Assembly (NCBI GenBank): GCA_947625265.1
Contig: CANQNM010000001.1
Span: forward strand, 1 to 56,042
DNA from: an uncultured Clostridia bacterium
Lineage (GTDB): Bacteria; Bacillota; Clostridia; Oscillospirales; CAG-272
Length of the DNA: 56,042 bases
Reading direction: 5' to 3'
The first letter of the stretch is position 1, and each line of letters begins with the position of its first letter. Positions 16,990 to 55,156 of this stretch are shown piece after piece. The notes below the pieces were generated by a model, which saw only the letters and a list, made by a program, of their open reading frames with translations, ran no database searches and was not told the origin of the DNA. A program made the translations under genes and the position numbers.

Positions 16990-17008
16990 TTTGCAAACAG
17001 AAAACATA

Positions 17009-17048: not shown

Positions 17049-17285
17049 GGTCCAAAAACACCGAACGGGTCGGGTTGCCTTCAATTCGGACTCTTGGAAT
17101 CTCCGCAGACCGTCGCGGTATTTGCGGAATTGACAAACTACTGTGAAAATATGTCGGACTTCTTCAATTTACGGCCAAATGCAAAGAAAAAAGCGGAAAA
17201 ATTCATGAAAAACCCTACATTTTTCATAAGAGAAATAGAATATGTTGAACCGGTGAAAATATTGAAATTTTTTTGAAATTTTCTC

Positions 17286-17314
17286 TTGAAATTTCAATGA
17301 GAGTATGCTATACT
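17286..17314 (+). promoter_or_regulatory. Sigma-A-type promoter of LRR paralog 3
   Basis: TTGAAA, a 17-nt spacer and TATACT. Confidence 0.65.
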
Positions 17315-17366
17315 ACAGACAGAGATGGGGGATCCCCCATGAAAATTTTGTAAAAGGAGAAATACT

Positions 17367-27053: not shown

Positions 27054-28040
27054 TTATTCCCCCGAACCCAATGCAACTTTCAACGTTTCGATATTCTGAC
27101 GCTGCATAGAAAGGTATGTTGCCGTTTGAAATTCTTTTGCCGATATTTCATGACAGGAATGCAGCAAAAGTGCTTTTCCGCCGATTTTTTGCGCAAGATT
27201 TTCGGCGTATGACCGGTCGCCGGTTTCGGTATAAAGAATGGCGGGTAAACGCAAATCCATCGCTTTTTCGTAGAGGCGGTTCAGTGTCATCAGCGACGGT
27301 TCCACGGCGGTGGAACATCCTTCAAAGGCGGCGTCTGCCTCGATACCGTAGTCGTGGCAGAGGTATCGAAAGGGAAAACGGTCCGCAAAAATCAGGGTTC
27401 TGAATTTTGCACCCGAAACCGTATCTTCCAAAAGTCGGTCCAGTTCCTCAAGTTGGGAAAGGTACTCCCGGGCGTTTTCGCGATAGAACGCCTGGTTGTT
27501 CGGATCGGTTTCGCAGATTTCGTCAGTTAGTTTGGCTACAATCGCGCATGCTCTCTTAGGCGAGGTCCACACATGACCGTCGTAGTCCTCCTCGCTCTCA
27601 GAGCGGTGCACCTCATCTTTTTTCGAATCTTCCCCGTTTTCTGCTTCGGATTCCAAAAGAAGTTCGCCTGCAAATTGGGTGAGTTCAGCAAAACGGACCG
27701 ACTGGGGCAGCATCTTTTTTAGTTCCTTCTCCAACTGTTCGTCGATTTCGCCCCCCGCGCACACAAAGAGGTCGGCGTTGTACAGTTCGTCGATTTTTTT
27801 TACCGAAAGATCCTTTAGCCCGAAGGCGTGCGTTTCCGCACCTGGAGGGATCAGAAGTTCCACTGTGGCTTTGTCTCCCGTGATATTGCGCACAAAATCA
27901 TACTGCGGAAAAACGGTACAGACAATGTACGGTTTTTCTTTTTTCTCTCTGTCTTTCAGAGAAACGGATTGGCAGGATGAGAGGGAAACAAAAACCGAAA
28001 AAAGCAGGAAAACAGAAACGAACTTTAAAAATTTTTTCAT
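27054..28040 (-). CDS. znuA: Metal ABC transporter substrate-binding lipoprotein (TroA/ZnuA family)
   Basis: It has a lipobox (LSSC) and an acidic/His loop (ESEAENGEDSKKDEVHRSESEEDYDGH). Confidence 0.8.
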   Translation of the reverse strand: MKKFLKFVSVFLLFSVFVSLSSCQSVSLKDREKKEKPYIVCTVFPQYDFVRNITGDKATVELLIPPGAETHAFGLKDLSVKKIDELYNADLFVCAGGEIDEQLEKELKKMLPQSVRFAELTQFAGELLLESEAENGEDSKKDEVHRSESEEDYDGHVWTSPKRACAIVAKLTDEICETDPNNQAFYRENAREYLSQLEELDRLLEDTVSGAKFRTLIFADRFPFRYLCHDYGIEADAAFEGCSTAVEPSLMTLNRLYEKAMDLRLPAILYTETGDRSYAENLAQKIGGKALLLHSCHEISAKEFQTATYLSMQRQNIETLKVALGSGE

Positions 28041-28167
28041 GAATTGGATTCTTCCTTTTTGGAAATGAAAACGGGCATTCAGGAATTGGATTCTTTCTTT
28101 TTAGAAATGAAAACGGGCATTCAGAAATTGGACTCTTCCTTTATGGAAATGAAAACAGGGAATTCAG
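28041..28167. repeat. Three tandem copies (42, 42, 43 nt) of the znuA 5' region
   Basis: The units span 28041-28082, 28083-28124 and 28125-28167. The unit abutting the znuA ATG contains its RBS. Confidence 0.85.
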
Positions 28168-28196
28168 GCGTTTTTGGACATACCCCGCAGGCTTTT

Positions 28197-28736
28197 TTAT
28201 TTTTGATGCTTCGATGCGTGCCCGCCCTGACAGGCCGGTTTGTATAGGAAAGCGTCCGCCCGCTCCGCGTTTTCGAAAGAGAACCGTCCGGGGGAATCTT
28301 CTGCAAAAGAACCTTTCTCAAGGGAGTTGTTCTTGCATGAGGCGCAGAGTCCGTAAAGCACCGTGGCGTTGTTGTCCACTTCAAAGGCGTGTACCTTTTC
28401 AATATGTGTAAGAAGTTCTTTGCTCATTCCGCATTCAAGATGCAGAAGTTTTCCGCAGCGGTTGCATTTCAGGTGCAGATGACCGCAGCAGTCGGACATT
28501 TGGTGGTATTGATACAGCCAGCCCCGTCCCTCGTTTTTTGGAAAACGGCGCAGAACACCTTCCTTCGTAAGATCGGATACCAGGCGATATACCGTGCTTT
28601 TGCCCGGAACTTTTCCTTCCGCGAAAATGTCCTGTGACAACAGTTCCGAGAGCTGCTCCGCGGAAAATTGCCTGTTTTTGTGTTCTCGCATATAGGAAAT
28701 CAGGCGTTTTTTCTGTTCCGTCTGATATTTCCCCAT
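28197..28736 (-). CDS. zur: Fur-family transcriptional regulator (probable Zur)
   Basis: The start at MGKYQTEQKK follows an AGGAGGAG RBS. CxxC pairs are present (CNRCGK, CASCK), and the gene is adjacent to znuACB. Confidence 0.75.
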   Translation of the reverse strand: MGKYQTEQKKRLISYMREHKNRQFSAEQLSELLSQDIFAEGKVPGKSTVYRLVSDLTKEGVLRRFPKNEGRGWLYQYHQMSDCCGHLHLKCNRCGKLLHLECGMSKELLTHIEKVHAFEVDNNATVLYGLCASCKNNSLEKGSFAEDSPGRFSFENAERADAFLYKPACQGGHASKHQK

Positions 28737-29133
28737 GATACTCCTCCTGAATTTGAGAATTACTCTTGAATTATAGTATGCCGAAGGTCGTTTGTCAAGA
28801 GAAATTTTCAAAGAAATGAAAGAAGTTTTCATAGACGGGTAAAAGGGAAAAATTTTTCGGTTTTGTGAAATTTTCATACTGTACGGTGAAAAAATTCGTT
28901 GACATTTTACAGTAGAAATGCTACAATCTATTCGCATGCTGTTGAAGCAATTAAGAACATTTTTTCAAATATCGGAATTTCCGCGTGCCTTTGAACGAAA
29001 ATCCGACGGTATTTGCTTTTTGTTTTTGTCCCTCATTTCCCTTGTTCCCTATCCCTTATTCCAGACGCTTTTTGGAACGGCATTTTGCGCGGAGGGCGGA
29101 TTTTTAAAGAACCGACAGCGGAATGGTGCTTAC

Positions 29134-32617: not shown

Positions 32618-33985
32618 ATGCTATCCATGGCAATTTGTGAAGAAGTTTTGGCAAAGGCGCTGTCTACGGGTGCCGACTACGGTGAAATTTTCGCGGAACG
32701 TTCACCGTCCTCCAGTTTGTATATGGTGAATTCCAGACTGGAGGAAATCAACGACTCGGTAGTTTGCGGGGCGGGGATACGCGTAATGCTGGGAACCCGC
32801 ACCGTCTTTGGCTCCACCACCGACCTGACAAAGGAAGGATTGCTGCGCTTGGCGGAGCAGGTCAGCGAAGCGTTGGGACAGGGAAAAACCGGTGTTTCCA
32901 TTCATCTGGAAAGACAAACGGTGGGCAGTTGCTGTCCGGTGGCGAGAATTTCTTCCGAAGTGCCCAAGAGCGAAAAACTGACGGTACTGAAGAGGTGTTA
33001 TTTTGCGGCAAAGGAAAAGGATGCGAGGATTACGCAGGTAAAAGCGCAGCTTATAGACATTGATAGGAATATTCTCATCGCGACAAGTGAAGGAAAATAT
33101 GTGCAGGACCGTCAGGTGCGTACAAGACTTGCCTGCACCTCCATTGCAGAGGATCAAAACGGAACCGAAAGCGGATTCTGCGGACCGGGGAGACGCATGG
33201 GCATGGAAATGTTTGACCGGTTGATCAGTCCGGAGGATACGGGAAGGGAAGCTTCCCGTGTAGCGTTGGCGCGCCTCGGAGCCTCTTTCTGTCCGGCGGG
33301 AAAAATGACGGTTGCGGTGGAAAACGGATTCGGCGGTGTGATTTTCCACGAAGCCTGCGGGCATTCTCTGGAGGCCACGGCCGTTGCGACGGGTACCTCT
33401 CAGATGGCGGGCAAACTGGGCAAACAAATTGCAAACGAAAAGGTCACTGCGATCGATGATCCCACCGAAAAAAACGCTTGGGGAAGCATCGACGTAGACG
33501 ACGAGGGGACGCCTACCCATCCCATTGTACTCATCGAAAAAGGCATTCTGAAATCCTATATGATTGATAAACTGGGCGGTCGAAGAATGGGTATGCCTTC
33601 TACAGGCAGCGCCAGAAGGCAGGATTTCACCTACGAACCCACTTCCCGAATGACCAACACCTATATTGCCAACGGGCCCGATAAAAACGAGGATATCATT
33701 GCTTCCCTTGAAAACGGGTTATATGCGGCGAAAATGGGCGGAGGCTCGGTAAATCCTATCACCGGCGCTTTCAATTTCGGCGTGGACGAAGGGTATTTGG
33801 TAAAGAACGGGAAAATTGTCCAATGCGTCAAGGGCGCGTCGCTCATCGGAACCGGTTCGGAGGTGGAATCATTATTGATCTTATTAGATCAGTTGGGAGT
33901 ATGTTCTTCCAGCGGTTCAGTACCCAATGAGGTAGGGCAGCCTTTGATTCGAATTTCATCTATTACTGTCGGCGGCAGAAACTGA
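32618..33985 (+). CDS. tldD: TldD-family metallopeptidase
   Basis: It has an HEACGHSLE zinc motif and a conserved C-terminal GQP...ITVGG. Confidence 0.85.
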   Translation: MLSMAICEEVLAKALSTGADYGEIFAERSPSSSLYMVNSRLEEINDSVVCGAGIRVMLGTRTVFGSTTDLTKEGLLRLAEQVSEALGQGKTGVSIHLERQTVGSCCPVARISSEVPKSEKLTVLKRCYFAAKEKDARITQVKAQLIDIDRNILIATSEGKYVQDRQVRTRLACTSIAEDQNGTESGFCGPGRRMGMEMFDRLISPEDTGREASRVALARLGASFCPAGKMTVAVENGFGGVIFHEACGHSLEATAVATGTSQMAGKLGKQIANEKVTAIDDPTEKNAWGSIDVDDEGTPTHPIVLIEKGILKSYMIDKLGGRRMGMPSTGSARRQDFTYEPTSRMTNTYIANGPDKNEDIIASLENGLYAAKMGGGSVNPITGAFNFGVDEGYLVKNGKIVQCVKGASLIGTGSEVESLLILLDQLGVCSSSGSVPNEVGQPLIRISSITVGGRN

Positions 33986-33999
33986 AAGGAGGCAGAACC

Positions 34000-35346
34000 A
34001 TGACGGAAGTTTATTTTGATAAACTTTATGAGGCGGCAAGACAAAAAGCGGAGAGTTTGGGCGCGGAAGTGTTTGAATTGTACTATTCAGGTGGGGAGGA
34101 TCTTTCGGCGGAAACTTTCAGAGACGAACTGTCGGGCTTTTCGGCGGGACAGAGCGGCAGACTGTCTGTCAGGATGTTGATCGGCGGAAAAATCGGAACG
34201 GCGTCGAGCACTCTTGCAACGCCTGAGGAAGCGATGGAATTGCTGTCCAAGGCGGCGGAGAATGCCAAACTTGTGGAGAAGGATGAGGAAGCGCTGTTTT
34301 GCGAGGGTGGACAGACGTACAGGGAGGTGAAGAGCGTTCCCTTCACCATGCCCTCTGCAAGAGAGGTAAAAGAAACGGCGATGCGTATGAGAAACGCGGC
34401 GTATGCTTCTTCCGAAAAAATTTCGGATGGAACGTCAGGAGGCGCATATGCGGCGCAGAATGAGATCTTTCTCTATACAAGCAAAGGTTTACGTCTGTCG
34501 GCACACAGCGGAGGCATGGGCGCCTATGTATACAGCGTTCTCGAAGAAGGGGAAGAGAAGAGGGACGGTTTTGAAAGCGCAGCCAAGCCCCTGGAGGAAG
34601 TGTCCGGCGAGGAATTGGCGCAAATTGCTACAAACCGTGCGGCGGAACGTTTCGGCGCAACGTTGCCGCAGAGCGGAAACTACCCCATTGTTTTTGAGGG
34701 TAAGCAGATGCAGCAGATTCTTTCTACCTTCTGCTCGGTATTCTTTGCCAAAGAGGTACAACAGGGACTGTCACTCTTGAAGGACAAGGAAGGAGAGAAA
34801 ATCGCCACGGAACGGTTGACTCTCATCGACGACCCATTTTTTGAGGGAAATCCCATGCAGATTGCCTTTGACGGCGAGGGCACGCCCACTTACACCAAAG
34901 CGGTGATTGAAAACGGCGTGCTGAAGACGTTGCTTTACAATCTTGAGAGCGGAAAAAAGGCGGGGAAAGCCTCTACCGGAAACGGCGCACGGATGACAGC
35001 CGCCATTGGTACAAAGGTGTATAACCTGTATATCGTTCCGGGAAAGAACACAAGGGAAGAACTCTTTAAAATGGCAGAGGGAGGTATATTCGTCACTGGA
35101 ATGAAGGGATTTCACGCAGGCGCGAATGTGGTTTCAGGTGATTTTTCCATAGAGAGCGAGGGCTTCATGATCCGAAACGGGCAAAAGGCGGAGCCTGTAA
35201 AGTCTTTCACTGTTTCGGGAAATTTCTTCGAACTTTTGAAAAACATTGCCGCCATTGGTGGCACCATTGAGGATATGCATCCCGGTTACAGCAAAATCCG
35301 GTGTCCAGACATTCTGATTCCGAGTATGCCGATATCCGGCGCCTGA
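34000..35346 (+). CDS. pmbA: PmbA/TldE-family protein
   Basis: The RBS is GAAAGGAGG. It is paired with tldD and has a family-typical C-terminal SGDFS...G region. Confidence 0.8.
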   Translation: MTEVYFDKLYEAARQKAESLGAEVFELYYSGGEDLSAETFRDELSGFSAGQSGRLSVRMLIGGKIGTASSTLATPEEAMELLSKAAENAKLVEKDEEALFCEGGQTYREVKSVPFTMPSAREVKETAMRMRNAAYASSEKISDGTSGGAYAAQNEIFLYTSKGLRLSAHSGGMGAYVYSVLEEGEEKRDGFESAAKPLEEVSGEELAQIATNRAAERFGATLPQSGNYPIVFEGKQMQQILSTFCSVFFAKEVQQGLSLLKDKEGEKIATERLTLIDDPFFEGNPMQIAFDGEGTPTYTKAVIENGVLKTLLYNLESGKKAGKASTGNGARMTAAIGTKVYNLYIVPGKNTREELFKMAEGGIFVTGMKGFHAGANVVSGDFSIESEGFMIRNGQKAEPVKSFTVSGNFFELLKNIAAIGGTIEDMHPGYSKIRCPDILIPSMPISGA

Positions 35347-39921: not shown

Positions 39922-42216
39922 CTATCCAACGGAGCATACCTCCACTACCGCTACGCTTCGATCATCCGGCTTTTGTTCATCCTTTTCGGCAATTGCCAAA
40001 ATATCTTCAGCCATCTCCTGAACGTTTTCTCTCAATTTCCCTGAAAGAAGGGAAGAAAGCCATGAGGAGCCTTCCATATCTGTGCAGACGCCGTCGCTCA
40101 TGAGCAGGATTTTGTCACCGGGTTTGAGGTGCAGTGTGATCAATTCACAGTTTACCTCCCTTGCCGCTCCTACGGGCATGCTGGCGGAAGAGAGTTTAAA
40201 GGTGTTTCCACCCCGCAGCACCAACGAAGGGCACGCACCGCATTTGACGAAATCGCATTTTCCGTCATAGAGGTCCAATCTCATCAGATCCACTGTTGTG
40301 CAGCATTCGCAGCTTTGACACAGCAAAAAATCGTTGACGGTTTTGAGCACGGTAGGCAGTGCTCCGCCGCAAAGGGAGAGTTGTTCTACAAAGTGGCAGG
40401 CGATTCTTGATACCAGCGCCGCATCTCTGCCGCTTCCCATACCGTCACAAAGCAAGGCGTAGAAGCAGTGATCCTGTATGAAGGTGTATACGGTGTCTCC
40501 GCAATACTCTTCTCCCTCCTTTCGTTTCGCGGCCGCTCCGAACTTTGCCGAGATTTTTTCTCTCCTTTTAAAGATCAGTTCGTTTCTTTGGGGAGTGCAT
40601 TCAAGTTCAGGGTAAGAAAGCGCAAGTCCGCATTTTTGCTCAAACTGTTTTTGCAATTCCGGCGCGCTTTTTCCCAGGTCCGAGACAGAGACGCCGCTTG
40701 CCCGCAGAACGATGGAGCGTTCGCCTTTGACGAAACAGGATTCGAATCCAATGGACAAACTGTGAAGCGCGCGTTCAAAATCCTTTTGTACCTTCTCGTT
40801 TTGCGCCTGTTCCTGTTTATGAAGAGTTTCCCGATCATGCAAAAGTTCCGATATGCTTTTATAACAGCGCGCGTAGCAGTCCGAACGGTCTGCTTCATAG
40901 AGATGACGCAGGTATGCTGCGTAGTCGTTGTTGACGTTGTCGCAGATCGTTTCCCACTTGGTGCAAGCGGAGGAGAGACGGGAGGGGGGAGATTCTACGC
41001 TGAGTTTGCCGACTTCAAAGAGGGTGTCGGCCAATCTTTTTTTTCGATCTTCTTCTTTGAAACAGCCGCCCTTGCAATTTCCACAGACTCTGTTTAGTCC
41101 TGTTTCACATATACGCCCCGCGTCCTCTCTTGCCGGTAGACGCAATTTGCCGGAGAGTGCGAAAAGTCGCTCGGAAAGCACATCCAATGAGTTTTCCATA
41201 GGATTTTTCGAAAGATTCTCATCACTCTTCTTTTCGTTATCCGCCGTTTTTTCGGCCGATTCGCGTTTATTTTTCAAAAAGAACGTAGAGATCGGAATAT
41301 AAACCAACAGCCCACAGACAAGATCGGGAAGGACATATAGAAATGAGGAACTTCCTCTAGCGTAAAAGGACCAGGCAAATCCCGCAAGAACCCCCAGCCA
41401 GGGCGCCGTACGTTTGCTGTATTTGTAAAGCGCCCCGGAAACCAGACTGAGAAGCGCCAATATCGGTACATACTCCCGCCCACAGGCGATCCCGAGAATC
41501 ACCCCCAGCGCGACGCTGTAGAGCAGATCCCCCTTTTCGCACATAAAAAAACAAAGAAGTGCGGAAAGTGCCACGGCTGGAGAGAAGGCGAGAAAGGAAA
41601 ATCCCTTTACGCTGTATATGAGTGAGAATAGAATCGCGGCGTACGCTCCCTTTTTATAGAGGGGATGTGCGCTGACACCCATGAAGGCGCCGGCGTAGAG
41701 AAAGGTAAAGGCGCCTGCTGAAAGCATGTAGAAGAGCATGGCCATAAGAGCATGAACGGTAAAACCTTCTGACACGCAGCCGTACAGCCCCAGCGAAAAA
41801 GAGAGAACGGTTGCTATTGCTACCCGGATTCCAATGGGAGCGTTTGTGCCGGAGAGCCTGTTTTGCTCTCTATAAAACGCCGACAGTCGGAGCCGCAATG
41901 CCAGCGCCACACTGTATATCGCGGCAAAAAGAATGCCCGCGTTGCCTCTTGTAAAGGACGCGACCAAGCCTCCCGCCCATATATACCACAAATCTTTGGT
42001 GGAAGCGCAAAGAAACGCCACACCCATTGGAAATGTGCCGAAAAGCATTTCACCTGAGGAAAAAAGAAACCCGCCCAGCGCGAAGACCGTGCCTTCCAAA
42101 ATAGACCTTCCCCACGCTTTGCGCAGTTCGCCATCCTTTGTGATTTTTTTAAAGGACGACATATATTTTTCAAACGGCGGAAAATGCCACGGCTTTTTCT
42201 CATCTTTTCTGTTCAC
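39922..42216 (-). CDS. spoIIE: Stage II sporulation protein E (PP2C phosphatase)
   Basis: A GTG start follows AAGGAGGA. The N-terminal half is polytopic, and the C-terminal PP2C domain contains LLCDGMGSG and LLMSDGV. Confidence 0.85.
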   Translation of the reverse strand: MNRKDEKKPWHFPPFEKYMSSFKKITKDGELRKAWGRSILEGTVFALGGFLFSSGEMLFGTFPMGVAFLCASTKDLWYIWAGGLVASFTRGNAGILFAAIYSVALALRLRLSAFYREQNRLSGTNAPIGIRVAIATVLSFSLGLYGCVSEGFTVHALMAMLFYMLSAGAFTFLYAGAFMGVSAHPLYKKGAYAAILFSLIYSVKGFSFLAFSPAVALSALLCFFMCEKGDLLYSVALGVILGIACGREYVPILALLSLVSGALYKYSKRTAPWLGVLAGFAWSFYARGSSSFLYVLPDLVCGLLVYIPISTFFLKNKRESAEKTADNEKKSDENLSKNPMENSLDVLSERLFALSGKLRLPAREDAGRICETGLNRVCGNCKGGCFKEEDRKKRLADTLFEVGKLSVESPPSRLSSACTKWETICDNVNNDYAAYLRHLYEADRSDCYARCYKSISELLHDRETLHKQEQAQNEKVQKDFERALHSLSIGFESCFVKGERSIVLRASGVSVSDLGKSAPELQKQFEQKCGLALSYPELECTPQRNELIFKRREKISAKFGAAAKRKEGEEYCGDTVYTFIQDHCFYALLCDGMGSGRDAALVSRIACHFVEQLSLCGGALPTVLKTVNDFLLCQSCECCTTVDLMRLDLYDGKCDFVKCGACPSLVLRGGNTFKLSSASMPVGAAREVNCELITLHLKPGDKILLMSDGVCTDMEGSSWLSSLLSGKLRENVQEMAEDILAIAEKDEQKPDDRSVAVVEVCSVG

Positions 42217-42584
42217 GGGCTTGTCCTCCTTTTTTGGTAAGTTTACTCCGGTTTTCTCGCATAGACTGTCGAAATCGGGCGCGGTTTTCTGAAAAGATGG
42301 AATTTGCGGAACTTTTTTCGGTTTTGAACATTCATCGGCTTTATCGTGGAACGTGACCCTCTATTGTGCGACGAAAAACTTTCTTATAGGGGCGGAAGGG
42401 GACTTTGCAAGGCAGGAAGGTGTCTTGCTGTGCGGTTTCACTGTGTTCGTGAATGTATGGGAATGTGCGTATGGATGTGTTGAAATTTTGCCTTCATTTT
42501 TCCAAACAAAAAGGGTTTGGAAATTTTTTGAACATTCACACGTGTAAAACAGATTGTGAAATGTAAAGACGGCGCGAAATTTCC

Positions 42585-42625
42585 AAAAAACAACGGCGTC
42601 AAAACTTCAAAGTTTTGCGTCGTTG
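42585..42625 (-). terminator. Intrinsic terminator about 480 nt downstream of recG
   Basis: A stem of about 16 bp (caacggcgtcaaaactt / aagttttgcgtcgttg) is followed by TTTTTT on the minus strand. Confidence 0.6.
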
Positions 42626-42942
42626 TTTCAGAATATAAGGATGGCCGGTTCTTTGACAGTTTTTCACGGCATAACGGCATATACCTGCCCTGGTACATTC
42701 CTGCCGTGGGAAACGCGCGACATGCCTGTCTGCTGTTCGACGGCGCGGCCGGTTCGAGGAATTTGTACGGCGTTGGCAATGTCGGACAATCTATCCCATG
42801 TCGGTTTCCAAAATGGCGCGGGCCGCTTTGAAGGACTTTGAGGGACTTTGAAGGACGTTGCCGCGTGAATAGCCCGTCGCAGGCGCGTTGCCGCGGCATT
42901 CTGTGCGGACTTTCATATCGGGTATTTCATGCTAGGCACCTC

Positions 42943-43095
42943 ATGCCGGTCGTTCCATGCAAGGCGCCTCATGCCGGGCATTTCCATGCCGGGCATTCTA
43001 TGCCGGGCATTTTATGTCGGGCATTCTATGCCGGGCATTTTATGCCGGGCATTTTATGCCGGGCATTCTATGCCGGGCATTCTATGCCGGGCATT
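42943..43095 (+). repeat. Tandem array of a 14-nt unit ATGCCGGGCATTYT
   Basis: I counted about 9 well-formed units from 42971, preceded by 2 degenerate units. The array lies directly downstream of the recG stop. Confidence 0.9.
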
Positions 43096-43108
43096 GTGTG
43101 TTGAACTG

Positions 43109-45247
43109 TTAGTTTATGACATTGTCCGCAATGGAGAAGAGTTTGCACATTCTCATGTAGGTGGGAATATGTTCCTCACTGCTGAGTGTCGGATCTTTTT
43201 CAAGAACTGCTTTCGCAGCCATGGCGGTTTTTTCCGGTATTGAAGCATCCGTGCAGGAGGATGCCAATTTGAAAGAAAATTCGCCGCTTTGTCTGGTCGT
43301 TTTCCCGGACGTTGATGGGAAAAAATCCCCCGGACCGCGCAGTTTCAAATCCTCGTTCGCAATTTCGATGCCTTTCTGTGTTTTGCATACCGTTTGCAGG
43401 CGCTTAAACGCTGTGCTTTCTTTTTGACATTCCGAAACCAGCACGCAATAGGATTGAACTGTTCCTCTTCCTACCCTGCCGCGGAGTTGGTGCAGTTGGG
43501 ACAATCCGAAACGTTCGGCATTTTCTACAATCATCAGGGTCGCGTTGGGCACGTTTACCCCCACCTCGATGACGGTTGTGGACACAAGAACCTGAATTTC
43601 ATTTTTGGCAAAAGCGGTCATGACCTCTTCCTTCTCTTTGGGCTTCATTTTTCCGTGCACGAACCCCACTTTGAGCGAGGGCAGTTCTTTTTGCAGTTCT
43701 TTTGAAAACTGAACGGCGGCTTTCAAAGGCGGGGGCGGCGCGCAGGTTTGCGCGGGGCTGCATTCAAAAACAATCAGTTTACCGTTTTCGCTGTCCTCCT
43801 CGGCATCCACCGCCGGACAGACCACATAGACCTGATGTCCTTCGTCGGTCTGCTTTTTGATAAACCCATTGAGCCTCGTTCTGTAACTCTCGTCTACGGC
43901 ATAGGTAAGCACTTTCTGTCTGCCGGGAGGAAGTTCATCAATGTAAGAGATGTCAAGACCGTTGTACAGAATAAGGGCAAGTGTTCTCGGAATGGGTGTG
44001 GCGGTCATCACCAGCATGTGTACCTGCTTCCCCTTACCGCCAAGGGAGGAACGTTGGTTCACACCGAAACGGTGCTGCTCGTCGGCAATGACCAGCGCCA
44101 GATTATCAAAGACGGTGTCCTCCGTCAAAATGGCGTGAGTACCGATTACCAGATGAACTTCTCCTGACAGGATCTGCGCGCGCACCTTCTTTTTGGCGGC
44201 AGGGGAGAGCGCGCCGATGAGCAGTGCCGTTTTGAATCCCAGTTTTTCAAACAGAGGGGCAAGATCTGAGAAGTGCTGGGAAGCGAGGATTTCGGTGGGA
44301 ACCATCAGCGCAGCCTGTTTGCCGTTTTTCAGCGCGATGTAAATGGCGCCTGCCGCACAGGCAGTTTTTCCCGAGCCCACATCTCCGCAGATCAGTCGGT
44401 TCATGGGAACTTGAGATGTCATATCCTTTCCAATTTCCTCAAGAGTTCTTTGCTGCGCGCCGGTGAGTGTGAAGGACAGCGCAGAGAGAAAGGGAACCAT
44501 GTCCACAGAATGCAGGCGTTCCTCTGTTCGGAGCGCGCGTTTTTCTGCACTTTTTTGCATACCCAGCGAGAAAAGAAAAAGTTCCTCAAAAATGAAACGT
44601 CTGCGCGCCCGATCCAATTCTTCATAGTTCTTTGGAAAGTGCACGGCACGAAAGGCCTCGTTTATGGGCAGAAGGCCGTAGGTTTCACGAATTTCTTCGG
44701 GAATTGGGTCGGGAATCGCGCCGGCAAGATCAAGAGCGGAGGCGACCGCGGCGGAAATGACTTTGCCGTTGAGTCCCTCGGTCAGCGGATAAACCGCCTT
44801 GAAATCAGGAAGGGGACGATTGACGCCGTATGCCTCATATTCTGGGCAGGACATTGAAAAATTTTTCCCTGTTTTTTCCACTCTGCCCCAAAATCTAAAA
44901 ACGGTGCCAAGATAAAAAATATCCCGAACATAGGGCTGATTGAAAAAGGTGATCACACACTTCCCGCTTTCATCGAAGGCCGTGAAACGCGTCATCACAC
45001 GTCCTCCCTTCAATCTTACGGAGGAGGGCTGCGACCCGACGGTGAGAACTGTGGCGCAGTGGTAAGGGAGAAGCGACGCTTCTCCCAGGCGGGAGATCTC
45101 CCCTCTGTTCTGATAGCCTCTTGGAAAGTGATACAGAAGATCGGAAATGCATTCAATGCCCAGTTTTGCAAAGCGCGCTGCCTTTACTCTGCCAACACCC
45201 GGAAGAACGGTGACCGGCTGAGTTACAAAATTCGAATTTTCCGACAT
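43109..45247 (-). CDS. recG: ATP-dependent DNA helicase RecG
   Basis: The start at MSENSNF follows a GGAGGT RBS. Walker A is GDVGSGKT, the DEQH box is DEQHRFG, and QLRGRVGRG is present. Confidence 0.92.
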   Translation of the reverse strand: MSENSNFVTQPVTVLPGVGRVKAARFAKLGIECISDLLYHFPRGYQNRGEISRLGEASLLPYHCATVLTVGSQPSSVRLKGGRVMTRFTAFDESGKCVITFFNQPYVRDIFYLGTVFRFWGRVEKTGKNFSMSCPEYEAYGVNRPLPDFKAVYPLTEGLNGKVISAAVASALDLAGAIPDPIPEEIRETYGLLPINEAFRAVHFPKNYEELDRARRRFIFEELFLFSLGMQKSAEKRALRTEERLHSVDMVPFLSALSFTLTGAQQRTLEEIGKDMTSQVPMNRLICGDVGSGKTACAAGAIYIALKNGKQAALMVPTEILASQHFSDLAPLFEKLGFKTALLIGALSPAAKKKVRAQILSGEVHLVIGTHAILTEDTVFDNLALVIADEQHRFGVNQRSSLGGKGKQVHMLVMTATPIPRTLALILYNGLDISYIDELPPGRQKVLTYAVDESYRTRLNGFIKKQTDEGHQVYVVCPAVDAEEDSENGKLIVFECSPAQTCAPPPPLKAAVQFSKELQKELPSLKVGFVHGKMKPKEKEEVMTAFAKNEIQVLVSTTVIEVGVNVPNATLMIVENAERFGLSQLHQLRGRVGRGTVQSYCVLVSECQKESTAFKRLQTVCKTQKGIEIANEDLKLRGPGDFFPSTSGKTTRQSGEFSFKLASSCTDASIPEKTAMAAKAVLEKDPTLSSEEHIPTYMRMCKLFSIADNVIN

Positions 45248-45390
45248 ATCTCTATGACCTCCCATGAAAATCTAGGCCAAGAATAGCACAAAAATCCTTG
45301 CTTTACAAGGGTTTTTCCCGTCAAAAGCGGTTCAAACCTGAAAATTTAAGAATTTGACTCCATCCCTAACCGGGATTTCCAAAAAAATCC

Positions 45391-45572
45391 GCCCGACAGA
45401 AACCGCCCGACAGAAACCGCCCGGCGGAAACTGCCCGGCGGAAACTGCCCAGCAAAAAATGCCCGGCAGAAACCGCCCGGCAAAAACTGCCCGGCAAAAA
45501 ATGCCCGGCAGAAACCGCCCGGCAAAAACTGCCTGACAAAAACTGCCCGGCAAAAAATGCCCGGCAAAAAAT
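45391..45572 (-). repeat. Tandem array of 13 units of 14 nt (GCCCGGCRRAAAMY on the + strand)
   Basis: I counted 13 units. The reverse complement of the unit (GCCGGGCATTTTTT) matches the unit of the 42943-43095 array. Confidence 0.9.
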
Positions 45573-45587
45573 TGCCGGGCATTTTTT
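45552..45587. terminator. Bidirectional intrinsic terminator (perfect 16-bp palindrome with A- and T-runs)
   Basis: The sequence is aaaaaatgcccggcaa-aaaa-ttgccgggcatttttt. It lies downstream of the 45659-46720 gene and forms the last unit of the 14-nt array. Confidence 0.75.
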
Positions 45588-45658
45588 GTCAAAGCGGCCG
45601 AAAGACCAACAGGGACTACACTTTCTGAAAATCGGTTGGGTACGAAAGTCTCCGCATC

Positions 45659-46720
45659 TCAAGAGAAGACGGATTCTTCCAGCGTTTCCTTTGCGCGGTC
45701 AACAGCGGAAAAATCCATTGCCGAACCGTAGATTTTCTCGATTTCGAAATGATGTTTTGAAATACCGATGAATTCCTTTTGCGCAAGATTCCAAAGATCG
45801 TTTTCGCGCTTTTCCAATTCACGCAGGTACTTCTTTTCATCACCTTTGGGCAGAGCCGCAAGGCGGCGCAGAGAAAGTGCTTTTTCGTTTGTAAGGGAAA
45901 GGGGTTCTCCCCTGCGGATGAGGATCCCTTTTTTTACAAGATAAAGACTGTCTGGATAGAGGGTCAGAGGATCCGGAGAAACCAGCGCCGCGATTCCAAA
46001 CTTCTCCGCGTTCTTTCTCAGTTCTTCAAGAAGAAGGAGATCCACTCCATAAAAACGGGGGAGAGTAAGAATTTTTTTTGCTTCCTGAATGTAAGGTTCT
46101 AAGCAAATAGAACCCTGCATACCGATGGAACAGAGGGGAACCGTCAGCACAGGCGACGGTTCGCAGCGAAGACCATCCGTGCAGAGAATTCTTTTCACGG
46201 TGCGTGCCATTGATTCTTTATTTATATACCGTGAAAGAAGGTTTATGTGGACCTCCAGAAGACTTTCCGCAGCGCGGAGCAGTGAAAACGCACGTCCGTA
46301 AGCGTCACTTTTCTCCTGGTTCAGTTTTTCGACGGTCCTTCGATGTTCCTGAAGTTTTTTTCCGTCCCAGAAAGCGCCAAGGTTCAGGATTTCGCTGTCT
46401 ACGCCCGGAATGTGAGGTTCCGCGACATGTGGGGCGGTACCGTCTACAATGGCGATCTGCCGTTTTCTTAAAATCACACCGTCAAGAGAATCGGGATCGG
46501 AGGAACACCAGATCCTCCAGACATCTTCGCCGCGTTCCTCTGCCTTTCTTGCGATATATGCCATAAGGCCGGATTTACCTGTTCCTGGCCCCCCTTTGAT
46601 GATATAAAGGAATTGAATTTTTTCAAGAAATGTGTCAAAATAGGAGACGAAACCTTTTCCTGAGTTGATACAGGCAAAACTGCCTCCAGCACGTGTTATA
46701 TGCGTATACGGATCTTTCAT
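45659..46720 (-). CDS. P-loop NTPase of unknown function (PRK06851-like, by recollection)
   Basis: The RBS is AAGGAG and Walker A is IIKGGPGTGKS. Confidence 0.5.
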   Translation of the reverse strand: MKDPYTHITRAGGSFACINSGKGFVSYFDTFLEKIQFLYIIKGGPGTGKSGLMAYIARKAEERGEDVWRIWCSSDPDSLDGVILRKRQIAIVDGTAPHVAEPHIPGVDSEILNLGAFWDGKKLQEHRRTVEKLNQEKSDAYGRAFSLLRAAESLLEVHINLLSRYINKESMARTVKRILCTDGLRCEPSPVLTVPLCSIGMQGSICLEPYIQEAKKILTLPRFYGVDLLLLEELRKNAEKFGIAALVSPDPLTLYPDSLYLVKKGILIRRGEPLSLTNEKALSLRRLAALPKGDEKKYLRELEKRENDLWNLAQKEFIGISKHHFEIEKIYGSAMDFSAVDRAKETLEESVFS

Positions 46721-46827
46721 TGTGCCCGCTCCTTTTTCTTTTTTTGTTCCATACAGTATATGTAAAAAATAAAAAAGGGGACAAAGAGAGAAAAAACGGA
46801 CGGGCTATCGGCTCTGATTGTTGACAA

Positions 46828-46861
46828 GGCTTATCCCCAATGGGGGTAGGCCCTGTTTTTT
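46828..46861 (+). terminator. Terminator-like hairpin with T6 tail, with no upstream + strand gene
   Basis: An 11-bp stem (ggcttatcccc / gggggtaggcc, two G-U pairs) is followed by ctgTTTTTT. Confidence 0.35.
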
Positions 46862-47520
46862 GGAGAGTTGAGGACGGTCAAGTTTGTTTGCAGGTGGGTT
46901 TTTACGCCGAAGTGTTCGGCAGGATACCGTCTGTTTCGTTGCGGTTGTTAACAGCGTTGAACAGTCGAAACGGCAATGAATGCGCGCCGTTTTTGAAGGT
47001 CATGAAGTTGTGCCCGCGAGATTTGAACCGTAAACAGAGAGCCGCCATGACGGTTGAAAACCGCTGGGCATGCGGCCGATTAACTATAAGGGGCAACTCT
47101 GTCGATATGTATCGCTTACGGACCGGCGGCGCAGCGGTGACTTCGCCGGAAATGTTTTCACCCGGTAAGTTTGCAAAACCGCTTTACTTTTTTCGCTGAA
47201 AGGAGTATAATGAATCCAGCAAAGAATTCGGACTTTTGGAGAAGAAAAATATAAAAACGAATCCCCAGACAGCCGTTTTTCAATGTGTGTTGGGTCGGAA
47301 GTTGCTGTCGATACAAACAGAGGGGACATATAATTTTTCTTTGATAGCGTGCGCAGAGATCACAAACAAAAAGAACGGAAGATAGGTATCGGCTGTCGGC
47401 ACTGCGGAACGAAGATACTTGAGCGAAATGTAAGAGGGGCAGGCAGATGCACATGAATGACGTCGGCAGGGATGCATACCGTGATGTGAAGGGAACAGAT
47501 CCTTTCTTTGAGGGCTCGCG

Positions 47521-52170: not shown

Positions 52171-52483
52171 ACGGAAGGTTTAAACGTCCCGAAACGAGGA
52201 AGAGAAATAGCGCGAAAAAAAGGAAACGGCGGGGAAAAAACATTGCGGAAGAGCGGTTGTTTTCCCGCGCGTTTCCGGTACGCATGGTTTGGAGCCGCGC
52301 GACCTCAGATTCCTTCATCGGGAGGGAATCTGCTGAACGCGAACAGCGAACAGCGAACAGAACAGATAAAAGCGCCGAAACGCGTTTGCATGCTTTCACG
52401 GATTTACAGCCGTGAAAAAAACGTTCAGCCTAGTCGGGCAATGGATCGCGAGCGGTGATCGTGAATCGTGAGGATATAAGCGT

Positions 52484-53023
52484 ATGATGATTTTGCTCCG
52501 TTCTCTTTTTGGATTGTTTGTGACCTTTGTGCTTGCCGGGTATTTTTTTGCGAGCGTGGGAATATACAAACTTATGGAAAACGCAGGAATGGGTCGTAGA
52601 GGGTTGGCGTATGTTCCTCTGTACAGGCTGTGGATTTTGGGCGAGTTGACGGGCCAAGAGAGGTATCTTCCTGCGGCGTTTCTTATTTGTGGCGGATTCC
52701 CTGTTTTGATGTTTCTTCTGTGCGTCTGTTGTCTTGTGATGCTGCTGACTGTTTTCCTTTCCCCTCTTGCACTTGTTCTGGCGCTTCTTTTGGCGCTTCT
52801 TTTTCCCGTGGCGCTCTATGCCTGTCCCATGTTTTTTAACATTTTGCTCTACCGCTTTTTTAAGGAACGCTGCGAGAGGTTCACGGTTGTACTCACAGTT
52901 CTTTCCGTGATCTTTACGTATTTTGGCATATGGCAGTACCTTGTATATTTTGTCTCGGTTGCCGGAAATGCCAACACCGAAGATTCGAAAAAATCCCCGA
53001 AGGAAGAAAAACTTTCCGTCTGA
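52484..53023 (+). CDS. Hypothetical polytopic membrane protein
   Basis: The RBS is GAGGAT. It has 4-5 strongly hydrophobic segments and a charged C-terminal tail. Confidence 0.55.
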   Translation: MMILLRSLFGLFVTFVLAGYFFASVGIYKLMENAGMGRRGLAYVPLYRLWILGELTGQERYLPAAFLICGGFPVLMFLLCVCCLVMLLTVFLSPLALVLALLLALLFPVALYACPMFFNILLYRFFKERCERFTVVLTVLSVIFTYFGIWQYLVYFVSVAGNANTEDSKKSPKEEKLSV

Positions 53024-53190
53024 CGCAAGGGAGGACGTGCCGTGCGGCGGATGTCGGCATATGCCGCGTGATGTGCAACGCACGGCATGCGGCTGTGCGG
53101 TTATGCTGCCTAACTGTTCCTCCGCTATGCGAATACCTGTCGGTTTCCTTCGACCGCCGCTCGGTTTTTCCCTTTCTCCGGGCTGTCGAA

Positions 53191-53270
53191 GCATTCCGAA
53201 ACACTTCGAAACACTTCGAAACACTTCAAAACACTCTGAAATACTCCGACACACTCCGAAATACCTCGAA
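53191..53270. repeat. Tandem array of about 8 units of 10 nt (ACACTTCGAA and variants)
   Basis: The units line up exactly with the 10-nt blocks of the sequence listing. Confidence 0.85.
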
Positions 53271-53307
53271 ACCGGAGGCGGAGCGCCCGGACAGGGGGAA
53301 GCACGCA

Positions 53308-53345
53308 GACTTTGACGCATAATACTGACTTTGACGCATAACACC
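53308..53345. repeat. 19-nt direct repeat x2 (GACTTTGACGCATAAYACY) just upstream of the CBS gene
   Basis: There are two adjacent copies with 2 mismatches. A third partial 'gact' follows. Confidence 0.8.
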
Positions 53346-53383
53346 GACTGTTGTGACAAATGTAGAAAACAGGAGAAAGACTC

Positions 53384-53791
53384 ATGAATGTGGCATTTTT
53401 CATCAAGCCCAAGAGTAAGATCATCTATGTATACGAAGATAACACCCTGAGGCAGGGTCTTGAAAAAATGAGATATCACGGCTACTCCGCCGTGCCGGTA
53501 CTCACAAGGGACGGAAAATATGCGGGATCGGTGAAAGAGGGCGATTTTCTTTGGGCCATTTACGGACAAACCGATCCGAAATTTGAGGAAAAAATCAGAA
53601 TCAGCGAAATTCTTCATAGAGAGGGCAGGGATCCTGTGCGCATTACGGCGGGTATGGATGATCTGCTGCTCAAGGTGATGGACCAGAACTACGTCTCGGT
53701 GGTTGACGATTCAGGATCCTTTGTGGGCATTGTAACGCGTCGGGACATCATGCATTTTTACTATGAAAAGATCAGAGAACTTGGCATCTGA
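53384..53791 (+). CDS. CBS-pair domain protein
   Basis: The RBS is AGGAG. Two CBS-like modules are present (YHGYSAVPVLTRDGKYAGSV; YVSVVDDSGSFVGIVTRRDI). Confidence 0.75.
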   Translation: MNVAFFIKPKSKIIYVYEDNTLRQGLEKMRYHGYSAVPVLTRDGKYAGSVKEGDFLWAIYGQTDPKFEEKIRISEILHREGRDPVRITAGMDDLLLKVMDQNYVSVVDDSGSFVGIVTRRDIMHFYYEKIRELGI

Positions 53792-54209: not shown

Positions 54210-54220
54210 GGGGGGGGGGG
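54210..54220. repeat. G11 homopolymer (C11 on the minus strand)
   Basis: I counted 11 consecutive G, ending 30 nt 3' of the stop codon of the 54250-55017 gene. Confidence 0.85.
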
Positions 54221-54249: not shown

Positions 54250-55017
54250 TTATTTTTCTTCGCTTTTGATATATTCCAGTGCACTTTTCATGTACATATC
54301 TTCAATTTTATCGGAATACAAGTTCTCTTCTTTCACGATTTTGCGTGCTTTTTCAATATCGTCCGATTGGGCTTTCTCCAAACCATATTTGGCGAGTATC
54401 CACTGTTTTCCGTGTTCCAGTGACCTGACAATCGCGTCAGCCACCGATTTGTCTTCCCGATTTTTGAACGCGTCTATGGAAATGATCGCCAACGGCGCCT
54501 GCGCAAATTTCCCCTTGACCGTGTTTTTTCGGGGCCCGCATACAATGGAATGATCTTGCTTGCTTTGGTACACTAAAATGTTTTCTCTGGTTTCCGCATC
54601 GGGTATATGGCGAAGTTTATCGCGGACATCAATTTGTCGAGATACCTTTCCGTTGATTTTGGCGACCTTTATTAAAAACGATAAATAGTATTCTTTGAGA
54701 GAAAGGCAAATATCGACGCCGCCCCTGCCAAGTTTGTGGAAATATAACTTTCCGAACCGATCTGCCCCTTTTTGTCTGGGATTTCGATGACAGCTGCAAT
54801 CCATGAATTCATGATTCGTATCTTTATAATAATATGCTTCAACGAGTAACGGTTCAACAGTAACATCATCAATTTGTATATGGTATTCGTTGATCAGTTT
54901 CTTTCCGATTTCTTGCAGTATCTCTATGCGCCTGCGGTTTTCATCGTCCCCGATTCCGTGAATGCCGTCAAGTCGTTCTACCATTTTTTTTAGTTCCGGA
55001 TAATTTGTTTTGCACAT
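54250..55017 (-). CDS. Hypothetical protein with ordered motif similarity to AAG/Mpg-type (PF02245) DNA glycosylases
   Basis: The gene has low GC. Motifs occur in family order: LVEAYYY, D-x3-H (MDCSCH), NPRQKGADRFGKLYFH, GGVDICLS, CGPRKNT. These parallel VETEAY, EDEAAH, TPRN..MF..G.LYVY, YG..FC.N and CSGPSKL of the family. The start was taken at the second ATG, 9 nt after AAGGA. Confidence 0.4.
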   Translation of the reverse strand: MCKTNYPELKKMVERLDGIHGIGDDENRRRIEILQEIGKKLINEYHIQIDDVTVEPLLVEAYYYKDTNHEFMDCSCHRNPRQKGADRFGKLYFHKLGRGGVDICLSLKEYYLSFLIKVAKINGKVSRQIDVRDKLRHIPDAETRENILVYQSKQDHSIVCGPRKNTVKGKFAQAPLAIISIDAFKNREDKSVADAIVRSLEHGKQWILAKYGLEKAQSDDIEKARKIVKEENLYSDKIEDMYMKSALEYIKSEEK

Positions 55018-55156
55018 TTTTAACATTTCCTTTTATTTATAATTTTTTATTCTTGCATTTTTAAATTGGAGTTTCATGCCCCATTGGAAAAATGCAGCCC
55101 ATTTTGCCAAGAAGTTGCTGCGGCATCCGTGTTGTTTTGGTCCAAAACCCCGAGAA

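Follow-up and report, generated by a model that had tools for sequence, protein, structure and literature searches.

Two mutually inverted arrays of a 14-nt unit around recG in an uncultured Clostridia bacterium, possibly minisatellites seeded by an intrinsic terminator

What are two tandem arrays of the same 14-nt unit that lie in mutual inversion on either side of a recG gene, and how did they arise? The original prediction on this DNA, a stretch of 56,042 nt from an uncultured, gut-type Clostridia bacterium (hereafter the window), named four options: a binding array for a protein, slipped-strand or cruciform-prone DNA, a substrate for inversion of the recG segment, and a clade-specific minisatellite. 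The last of these fits best, in a still narrower sense, because the arrays are private to the lineage in all data reached. Our preferred reading, to which we give an even chance, is that an intrinsic terminator seeded both arrays, which would make them minisatellites private to this lineage. Most likely they represent a local curiosity and not a new genetic system.

Table 1. Repeats, genes and signals at the recG locus (positions are those of the window)
Feature	Position	Strand	Description and evidence
spoIIE, downstream co-directional neighbour	39922..42216	-	Pfam SpoIIE
Outer-flank 11-mer GGCCGCTTTGA, left copy	42821..42831	+	Sole forward copy in the window
10-nt tandem repeat CTTTGAAGGA, x3.5	42826..42860	+	TRF; expanded from the 3' end of the 11-mer
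Decayed in-register units of array A	42916..42970	+	n=4, e.g. TGCTAGGCACCTCA, TGCCGGTCGTTCCA; register listing and repeat search
Array A	42971..43097	+	9 clean 14-nt units ATGCCGGGCATTYT; TRF score 206, unit catalogue
recG	43109..45247	-	Pfam RecG_wedge, DEAD, Helicase_C, RecG_dom3_C; homologues named RecG, 712-717 aa
Putative recG promoter	45280..45308	-	Read from the sequence
Array B	45385..45570	-	13 units, minus-strand reading YYGCCGGGCRKTTT; TRF score 220
Perfect palindrome, predicted bidirectional intrinsic terminator of the upstream gene	45551..45588	-	Repeat search, RNA fold, terminator score on both strands
Mirrored 11-mer, right copy (TCAAAGCGGCC on the plus strand)	45589..45599	-	Directly abuts the terminator palindrome
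Upstream co-directional P-loop gene, PRK06851 type	45659..46720	-	NCBIfam PRK06851 1e-39, below cut-off; weak nSTAND3 match

As recG is on the minus strand, the array at 45391 is upstream and the one at 42971 downstream of it, just as had been stated. Array A, the downstream array, starts 12 nt from the recG stop codon, and its unit consists of an 11-bp palindrome (ATGCC-G-GGCAT) and a 3-nt spacer. TRF called it at 42971-43095 with a period of 14, 8.9 copies, 92% matches and the consensus ATGCCGGGCATTCT. The array is cleanest toward recG and is prolonged leftwards by decayed units to about 42916, which makes the earlier count of about 11 units from 42943 a fair one. It contains a 28-bp higher-order repeat and is without any opposed arm. 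For the upstream array B, the TRF call is 45391-45570 (period 14, 12.9 copies, 85% matches, consensus GCCCGGCAAAAACT), with a 42-bp higher-order repeat; its units are cleanest beside the terminator and most decayed beside the recG promoter, and the variants CCGCCGGGCGG and CTGCCGGGCAG remain palindromic. The repeat search returned the two arrays as mutual reverse complements with 140-nt arms that are 79% complementary and 2332 nt apart, which bears out the inverted arrangement claimed around recG. With at most one mismatch, the core TGCCGGGCA occurs 52 times in the window versus 14 +/- 3.7 times in shuffled sequences, none of 100 shuffles reached 52, and the whole excess falls within the arrays.

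The outer end of array B points to the source of the unit. Seventy nt from the stop codon of the upstream gene lies a palindrome with 17-nt perfect arms (45551-45567 and 45572-45588, repeat search) around a 4-nt loop, flanked by A- and T-tracts, which folds as RNA into a perfect 15-bp hairpin followed by U6. This is the GC-rich stem-loop with a U-tract behind a stop codon that is predicted to act as an intrinsic terminator. A palindromic terminator had been proposed at this end of the array, and its perfection holds; its size does not, as it had been given as 16 bp at 45552-45587. The last unit of array B forms the left arm of the palindrome, and a single opposed unit forms the right arm. The 14-nt unit itself corresponds to the descending stem arm (TGCCGGGCA) of this terminator together with its T-tract. 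Array B is the descending arm in 13 copies, directly behind the intact hairpin. The idea of an amplified terminator half-site fits this structure.

At an overall identity of about 76-79%, the two arrays have no unit variant in common and match exactly, in inverted orientation, over 13 nt at most; the higher-order repeat spans 28 bp in A but 42 bp in B. This argues for independent expansion. Beyond the arrays, we found no homology of the flanks except for one mirrored 11-mer: the reverse complement of GGCCGCTTTGA occurs once in 56 kb, at the outer end of the terminator palindrome. In an anchored simulation such a match arose in 79 of 200,000 cases (p about 4e-4), although the test is post hoc and p becomes roughly 2e-3 to 1e-2 when the four array ends and the orientations are allowed for. 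The presence of this 11-mer outside both arrays suggests an inverted duplication of the terminator segment. The decay gradients of the arrays are not mirror images: the cleanest units of A face recG and those of B face outward, which under such an origin requires later turnover.

We infer the following course of events. The terminator segment, together with 11 nt or more of the flank outside it, would have been duplicated in inverted orientation across recG, and each copy would then have expanded separately by replication slippage or unequal exchange. Expansion may have been aided by the complementary half-sites ATGCC and GGCAT in every unit, with which a nascent strand could fold back at any register. 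Fold-back z-scores of the arrays are -10.4, -6.0 and -6.1, and the minus-strand RNA of array B reaches -137.5 kcal/mol (z = -10.4). The description of the arrays as slipped-strand or cruciform-prone DNA is therefore sound as a physical property, the self-folding of each array reaching z-scores between -6 and -10.

Any two adjacent units could pair into a hairpin with a T-tract at its end, which would turn array B into a stack of back-up terminators. A simple in-silico rule scored eight terminator-like modules on the minus strand of array B (seven of them beyond the hairpin at 45551-45588) and one on the plus strand, and in array A three on the plus strand and none on the minus strand; the modules point inward, toward recG, on both sides. 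The array pair probably acts, by prediction, as a reiterated terminator. The stack in array B might shield the recG promoter from read-through of the upstream gene, while array A would offer a few weaker terminators against antisense (plus-strand) transcription only, and given its lost opposed arm and T-tracts of just U4 its terminator activity may be nil. On the recG mRNA, array A would form a structured 3' UTR without a U-tract. The putative promoter comprises a -35 element TTGTAA (45308-45303), a 17-nt spacer and an extended -10 element TGcTATTCT (45288-45280), and the element TGTGCTATTCT / TGTGTTATTCT is found at the equivalent place upstream of recG in the array-less relatives L002/L003 and L211. 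This conservation argues that array B was added upstream of a pre-existing promoter. The recG start is an ATG preceded by GGAGG, which gives a protein of 712 aa; an alternative ATG lies upstream at 45265. Neither the 718-aa nor the 712-aa version of this RecG had an exact counterpart in the assembly index.

We consider the transcriptional effects incidental or weakly beneficial, rather than those of an evolved device, and likewise consider the link to RecG function coincidental, the recG genes of nine relatives being without arrays. A functional, maintained device (recG-insulating terminator stacks or protein-loading arrays), or a REP/BIME-like element born from a Firmicute terminator arm, appears distinctly unlikely.

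The surroundings of the arrays are those of ordinary chromosomal genes. The upstream P-loop protein has a classical and not a deviant Walker A motif, a flavin reductase gene belongs to the neighbourhood, and array A lies in the 892 nt of non-coding DNA between recG and spoIIE. Order and relative orientation of recG and spoIIE are the same in the relative L001; the neighbours of recG, and its orientation relative to TldD/PmbA genes, vary among the relatives. On the T-rich strand, no stop codon interrupts any of the three reading frames within either array. The 14-nt period is not a multiple of three, the array ORFs have codon-usage scores of -0.17 and -0.23 versus 0.18-0.39 in real genes, and they gave no meaningful Pfam match, so the original prediction was right to treat these open frames as artefacts of a stop-free unit. 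A hidden small gene was sought beside array A, but the ORFs of the gap are non-coding by codon usage and have neither Pfam nor tblastn support. No tRNAs were found, and the search against Rfam gave nothing at the gathering threshold and only far-sub-threshold matches at E<=1.

The known distribution of the arrays is narrow. They were not found at the recG loci of the nine relatives, and a scan of metagenome contigs with the core and a T-rich spacer detected no array of the 14-nt unit. We dismissed the 85 matches in that scan as chance ones: they hold two (at most three) in-register units, and many lie in coding sequence, e.g. in enoyl-CoA-hydratase-like genes. The 14-nt unit had no match in viral contigs, and blastn found none for array B in plasmids or for array A in phages, searches in which the low-complexity filter may have masked some of the query. 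A scan of genome contigs for three in-phase cores with free spacers was too loose, returning more than 119 unrelated and mostly GC-rich genomes, each with short 14-nt tandem repeats of its own in which the spacers are unrelated. The next-closest RecG is 70% identical, and the collections hold no second assembly of the same species. The genome is repeat-prone: tandem repeats, including other non-coding arrays, amount to 3.0 per 10 kb here versus 0-2.5 in the loci of the relatives. Neither terminator-arm arrays nor a recG bracketed by repeats came up in our literature searches.

The same features could have been shaped by selection for a transcriptional insulator, in which inward terminator stacks limit recG to its own promoter and block antisense transcription. 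On both sides T-tracts follow the hairpins only for recG-bound transcription, array B lies exactly between the stop codon of the upstream gene and the conserved recG promoter, and REP clusters of E. coli act as partial terminators and as mRNA stabilisers in 3' UTRs (bioRxiv 10.64898/2026.03.23.713779). However, nine relatives do without the arrays, a single perfect terminator should be enough, and the modules of array A, with U4, are weak. To the left of array A there is no evident plus-strand gene or promoter, the gap ORFs being non-coding, and a terminator-like hairpin is already present there at 42499-42533. As the pattern of unit decay moreover resembles neutral turnover, we regard selected insulation as unlikely, though not negligibly so.

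Alternatively, the two clusters at recG might be two among many in a REP/BIME-like family dispersed over this genome. In favour of this are the GC-rich palindromic core, its extragenic position and the clustering of the units; REPs are often also terminators and commonly occur in nearby clusters (PMC2817692). Yet the 14-nt unit is shorter than the REPs of that study (about 29-35 nt), the units run head-to-tail in one orientation and do not alternate as in BIMEs, and the window ORFs that were scanned contain no RAYT and no Y1 or IS200-like domain. Nor is the unit dispersed: a 13-nt seed is at chance level in the 54 kb outside the arrays (26 matches versus 27.5 expected from shuffles), the exact core occurs there once, within a coding region, and a search of the 56-kb contig for many unrelated intergenic copies found none. 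While a dispersed family may exist elsewhere in the genome, of which our view covers 56 kb, this explanation is improbable.

An array bound by a dimeric protein that recognises the 11-bp ATGCC-S-GGCAT, in the manner of centromere, iteron or nucleoid sites, and that would load on both sides of recG, would be in keeping with the geometry. A near-perfect 11-bp palindrome recurs in every unit with a constant pitch of 14 bp, some array B variants have stayed palindromic, and three units make 42 bp, i.e. four helical turns, equal to the higher-order repeat of array B. Descent from a terminator stem, however, accounts fully for the palindromic symmetry, as block duplication does for the co-variation. 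Elsewhere in the window the motif does not turn up at promoters, the vicinity of the arrays contains no par, rep or small DNA-binding gene, the flanking gap is non-coding, and the arrays are not conserved in relatives. Compared by eye, the core has to our knowledge no convincing match among RacA ram, Noc NBS, parS, sigma-54 -24/-12, Spo0A box, LexA and cre sites. A protein-binding role is unsupported and quite improbable.

That the arrays are the inverted repeats of a recombinational switch, with an invertible 2.3-kb recG segment, is to be regarded as very improbable. Inverted arms of ~140 nt do enclose the whole gene with its promoter, and the variable neighbours and orientation of recG among relatives would be in line with inversion. 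Yet a perfect match of 13 nt at about 76-79% identity is too little for efficient RecA-dependent homologous exchange, and profile searches of the 56-kb window detected no recombinase, transposase, mobile-element or partition genes. The orientation of recG and spoIIE is as in L001, and the promoter would travel with the gene, so that nothing obvious would be switched. The option of an inversion substrate is weakened by the short match, the lack of a recombinase in 56 kb and the L001-like orientation. An artefact in which real short repeats were inflated or rearranged by the metagenome assembler has just as slight a chance: the arrays stand on a single MAG contig without a second assembly of the species, and self-repeats that are exact over 27 nt in A and over 40 nt in B mean that unit counts could be mis-assembled, but the unit heterogeneity is ordered, with decay gradients and higher-order repeats, the unique sequence is ordinary on all four sides, recG is intact, and the variants of A and B are private without a common k-mer >13, which makes cross-joining impossible and leaves presence and orientation of the arrays beyond doubt.

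If the arrays did arise from a terminator as proposed, the locus would be a clear natural case of a terminator arm that became a minisatellite and was copied in inverted orientation, and a plausible first step to palindromic repeat families, the origin of which continues to be debated. A further implication would be that reiteration of a single hairpin arm automatically yields back-up terminators in series. The birth of a REP/BIME-like element, if that reading were true, would bear on the unresolved origin of REPs. About RecG biology the locus apparently says nothing. For annotators, the locus is a warning that all six frames left open by the arrays are spurious, and that unit counts in short-read MAGs are unreliable at this place.

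Among known systems, plasmid centromere and iteron arrays, e.g. parC of R1 or the omega-binding heptad arrays of pSM19035, resemble the present arrays in their contiguous short repeats with a fixed pitch, which sometimes form two clusters or occur in both orientations and lie beside promoters. The arrays differ from them in their chromosomal housekeeping context and lack of conservation, and the neighbours are spoIIE, recG, the PRK06851-type P-loop protein and flavin reductase instead of partition, replication or initiator genes. Invertons of gut bacteria and their gene-altering inversions (PMC9881135) likewise have inverted repeats that enclose a defined segment. Here, flanking inverted repeats are present, but tandem arrays whose perfect identity does not exceed 13 nt, and not long identical repeats, make up the arms. 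The window contains no recombinase, and the enclosed segment comprises an entire gene and its promoter, which leaves no apparent switch logic. A transposon with terminal inverted repeats is not indicated either: recG is the only gene inside and stands beside spoIIE as in L001, and a reading of the sequence revealed no direct repeat outside 42821 or 45599.

REP/BIME elements of proteobacteria are closer in appearance, being extragenic, GC-rich, palindromic and clustered; roles in termination and 3'-UTR structure have been proposed for them, and rayt can be bracketed by inverted copies (PMC2817692; bioRxiv 10.64898/2026.03.23.713779). The listed REPs measure about 29-35 nt, and REPs number >100 per genome, alternate in orientation within BIMEs and bracket a RAYT transposase gene (PMC2817692). 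In contrast, the 14-nt unit is strictly head-to-tail with one orientation per array, apart from the opposed unit that completes the terminator, it shows no high-copy dispersal within the 56-kb contig, and the bracketed gene encodes RecG and not a cognate RAYT.

The locus shares with intrinsic and tandem terminators the textbook GC-rich hairpin at 45551-45588, to which array B is predicted to add hairpin and U-tract modules in series. Unlike tandem terminators, array B repeats only the descending arm (13 copies), and the additional hairpins form between adjacent units. The closest counterparts are bacterial minisatellites or VNTR loci (MIRU-VNTR, MLVA markers): like these, the arrays consist of head-to-tail units in the range of 10-100 nt, are non-coding, free of frame constraint and lineage-specific, and show, as is typical of slippage or unequal exchange, higher-order repeats and gradients of decay. 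They are set apart from VNTR loci in that their unit is recognisable as a terminator arm, and that a second, inverted array of the same unit lies 2.3 kb away with a mirrored unique flank.

The recG gene is bracketed by two arrays of a 14-nt unit, array A downstream and array B upstream, which are mutually reverse-complementary over 140-nt arms (79% complementarity, 2332 nt between them). Decayed in-register units carry array A leftwards to ~42916. At one mismatch or fewer, the unit core occurs 52 times in the window against 14 expected, a number reached in 0 of 100 shuffles, and the excess is confined entirely to the arrays. Tandem Repeats Finder, the inverted-repeat comparison and the shuffles bear out the essentials of the original prediction, which had described the arrays and their inversion around recG. 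In each unit, an 11-bp palindrome whose middle base is unpaired (array A: ATGCC-G-GGCAT) is followed by a 3-nt T-rich spacer; because of the palindrome, only that middle base and the spacer define the unit's orientation. The array-spanning ORFs, already regarded as artefacts, are non-coding by codon usage and lack meaningful Pfam or tblastn support, and the same holds for those in the 700-nt stretch to the left of array A.

Features of the window, with strand where assigned
Feature	Coordinates	Strand	Remarks
BrxC/BrxD-type ATPase and TerB_N-domain genes	3867-6963	minus	adjoining; ATPase PF10923, 5e-149
BspA-type leucine-rich repeat paralogues	14312-18485		three in tandem, 362-377 aa
Short T-rich tandem repeats	15797-15828, 17262-17294		in spacers of the BspA-type paralogues
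Zn/Mn ABC substrate-binding gene	27054-28040	minus	
42-nt repeat	28036-28168		x3.1, non-coding
Fur-family regulator gene	28197-28937	minus	
TldD/PmbA pair	32618-35346		~8 kb from recG
spoIIE	39922-42216	minus	downstream of recG, co-directional
Gap	42217-42915		~700 nt
Terminator-like hairpin	42499-42533	plus	inside the gap
GGCCGCTTTGA	42821-42831	plus	single copy
10-nt repeat CTTTGAAGGA	42826-42860		x3.5
Array A	42971-43095		period 14, 8.9 copies, 92% matches, score 206 (Tandem Repeats Finder)
recG	43109-45247	minus	start is the ATG after GGAGG; the mechanical ORF starts at an in-frame ATG, 45265
Sub-threshold Ysr141 match	44222-44450	plus	38.7 bits, gathering score 196
Putative recG promoter	45308-45280	minus	-35 TTGTAA, 17-nt spacer, extended -10 TGcTATTCT
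Array B	45391-45570		period 14, 12.9 copies, 85% matches, score 220 (Tandem Repeats Finder)
Perfect palindrome	45551-45567 / 45572-45588		17-nt arms, 4-nt loop
GGCCGCTTTGA, reverse complement	45589-45599		single copy
PRK06851-type P-loop gene	45659-46720	minus	upstream of recG, co-directional
Gap	46721-47520		~800 nt
395-aa ORF	52430-53617	minus	covers the repeats below; probably spurious
TTCGAAACAC (10 nt, x8.7), then GACTTTGACGCATAACACC (19 nt, x2.2)	53186-53349		non-coding array at 53186-53272
CBS-domain (CbpB-like) gene	53384-53791		these repeats lie just upstream of it
11-G run	54210-54220		intergenic
ORF	54250-55026	minus	3' end just before the 11-G run

The identity of the bracketed gene as RecG is secure: its product has the domains RecG_wedge, DEAD, Helicase_C and RecG_dom3_C, and its homologues of equal length number in the thousands, several of them carrying the name RecG. 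The window is one complete 56-kb contig of a metagenome assembly; the host is an uncultured spore-forming Clostridia / Ruminococcaceae-like bacterium (GC 0.495), and the closest RecG proteins are just 64-71% identical. A match to the Yersinia sRNA Ysr141 runs antisense to the conserved helicase core and most likely reflects protein-coding conservation, not RNA.

A perfect palindrome closes array B, as had been predicted. On the minus strand, the sense strand of the P-loop gene, recG and spoIIE, the upstream gene's stop codon is followed after 59 nt by GGCCGCTTTGA, the ascending arm AAAAAATGCCCGGCAA, a TTTT loop, thirteen copies of the descending arm with its T-tract (YYGCCGGGCRKTTT) and, after ~80 nt, the putative recG promoter. 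Judging from this order, the 14-nt unit is the descending arm and U-tract of an ordinary, predicted intrinsic terminator, in keeping with the earlier idea of an amplified terminator half-site. Array A, which starts 12 nt past the recG stop codon, reads on the same strand as a series of ascending arms (AGAATGCCCGGCAT) that lack a partner arm.

Outside the arrays, the flanks have no significant similarity to each other apart from one exact 11-mer, GGCCGCTTTGA, which lies left of array A and, as its reverse complement, borders directly on the palindrome at the outer end of array B. In a simulation anchored at the base beside the palindrome, with 300 nt outside array A searched, a match of at least 11 nt arose in 79 of 200,000 resamplings; allowing for other ends and orientations that could have been tried, the chance probability is ~0.002-0.01. 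This suggests that the mirrored structure takes in unique flank, and favours the inverted duplication of a segment with a terminator: a flank in two copies is expected neither from one array split by inversion nor from two terminators alike by chance. The 10-nt repeat is an expansion of the 11-mer's own 3' end, so that the left arm would be a stack of three slippage products.

The two arrays have no unit variant in common: array A units all start with A and have the spacers TCT, TTT or TGT, in array B the first base is T or C, and the G/A variants are private to that array. The higher-order repeat is 28 bp in array A and 42 bp in array B, and the longest exact inverted match between them is 13 nt (TGCCGGGCATTTT). 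By these differences, each array appears to have been expanded and homogenised separately from a short common seed.

The half-sites within every unit are complementary, which lets each array fold on itself regardless of register. The predicted fold of the terminator and array B as minus-strand RNA (-137.5 kcal/mol, z = -10.4) begins with the perfect terminator hairpin, followed by two long imperfect hairpins; array A reaches z = -6.0 as minus-strand RNA and -6.1 as plus-strand DNA. Such fold-back agrees with the suggestion of cruciform-prone DNA and is expected to promote slippage. A terminator module was counted wherever five or more of 7 nt were T (the U-tract) and a hairpin of -8 kcal/mol or lower closed no more than two bases from them. 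By this rule, array B scored eight modules on the minus strand (-15 to -25 kcal/mol) and one on the plus strand, the palindrome itself; array A scored none on the minus strand and three on the plus strand, with U4 tracts only. Given this asymmetry, both arrays look like terminators only to transcription towards recG from outside; by the same rule, recG's own transcript meets a structured region without U-tracts.

The putative recG promoter sits between array B and the start codon. An element (TGTGCTATTCT / TGTGTTATTCT) occupies the equivalent position in the relatives' loci L002/L003 and L211, which have no arrays, and array B thus appears to have been added upstream of an existing promoter. 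The gaps beyond spoIIE and the P-loop gene have no coding potential by codon usage. Rfam returned no family at gathering score anywhere in the window; of the two gaps, the more sensitive E-value scan took in 42217-42915. The hairpin in that gap could signal a small RNA, unannotated and divergent from spoIIE.

In the recG loci of nine relatives (L001-L005, L210-L213), the core is absent in array form and the recG flanks hold no tandem repeat. The recG-spoIIE order is kept in L001 only, and the other neighbours differ in nearly every relative: the neighbourhood is prone to rearrangement and has been rearranged repeatedly in this clade. A TldD/PmbA pair adjoins recG in L002, L003 and L004, in differing relative orientations. 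A metagenome scan for two units with a T-rich spacer yielded 85 loci, each made up of two units in register or three at the most, and many of them lie within coding sequence; the corresponding viral scan returned none, and blastn gave no match for array B among plasmids or for array A among phages. A contig scan of genomes with a loose core pattern gave short 14-nt-period repeats, built on a GCCGGGCA core and differing from the unit in their spacers, in >119 mostly GC-rich genomes (genera including Streptomyces, Nonomuraea, Amycolatopsis and Dyadobacter; seven copies of GCCGGGCATGTGAT in Acrocarpospora); part of these repeats may lie in coding sequence and have a super-period of 42 nt.

Tandem repeats are unusually frequent in the contig, at 3.0 per 10 kb compared with 0-2.5 in the relatives' loci, and include further non-coding arrays. 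One of these, between the Zn/Mn ABC substrate-binding and Fur-family genes, could be an operator or promoter region present in three copies. The 11-G run could have arisen as an artefact of sequencing or assembly, or it could be a tract prone to slippage. L001, the closest NCBI relative, has a 14-nt repeat of its own (CCGACACGGTCCAA, x4.4, 1986-2047) upstream of a lipoprotein gene, equal in period and unrelated in unit. Elsewhere in the window, the BrxC/BrxD-type ATPase and TerB_N genes may be a pair with a role in defence; their vicinity has no further BREX genes.

The best explanation, to which we give an even chance, is that an ordinary terminator was copied in inverted orientation across recG, and that slippage in this repeat-prone genome then expanded one arm of each copy. 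Array B would now be a reiterated terminator before the recG promoter, and array A would form a structured 3' UTR whose antisense terminators are weak. The link of the arrays with recG is regarded as coincidental. The arrays belong to a single lineage, without conservation or a partner gene, and a neutral explanation suffices, the foremost rival being a selected insulator. A dispersed REP-like family would be expected to recur, but the window beyond the two arrays has 26 occurrences of the 13-nt seed at three mismatches or fewer, where 27.5 are expected for the window as a whole; orientation does not alternate, and no RAYT gene turned up among the scanned ORFs. A protein-binding array is a further rival. 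The proposal that the arrays are substrates for inversion of the recG segment is weakened by their exact identity of 13 nt at most, by a recG orientation as in L001, and by the lack of a recombinase among the scanned window ORFs (~150 aa or longer, and several shorter ones beside the arrays), which likewise included no transposase, partition or replication gene; the window has no tRNAs. An assembly artefact is the last of the rivals.

The arrays are real and slightly odd, and in kind they are a bacterial minisatellite / terminator. Our literature search found no description of terminator-arm arrays or of recG bracketed by repeats. REP/BIME elements are defined by copy number, alternating orientation and a RAYT gene (PMC2817692), and the arrays differ from them in each of these features, in copy number as judged within the contig. 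For array function they are nevertheless a useful analogy, since REP325 partially terminates transcription and stabilises mRNA (bioRxiv 10.64898/2026.03.23.713779).
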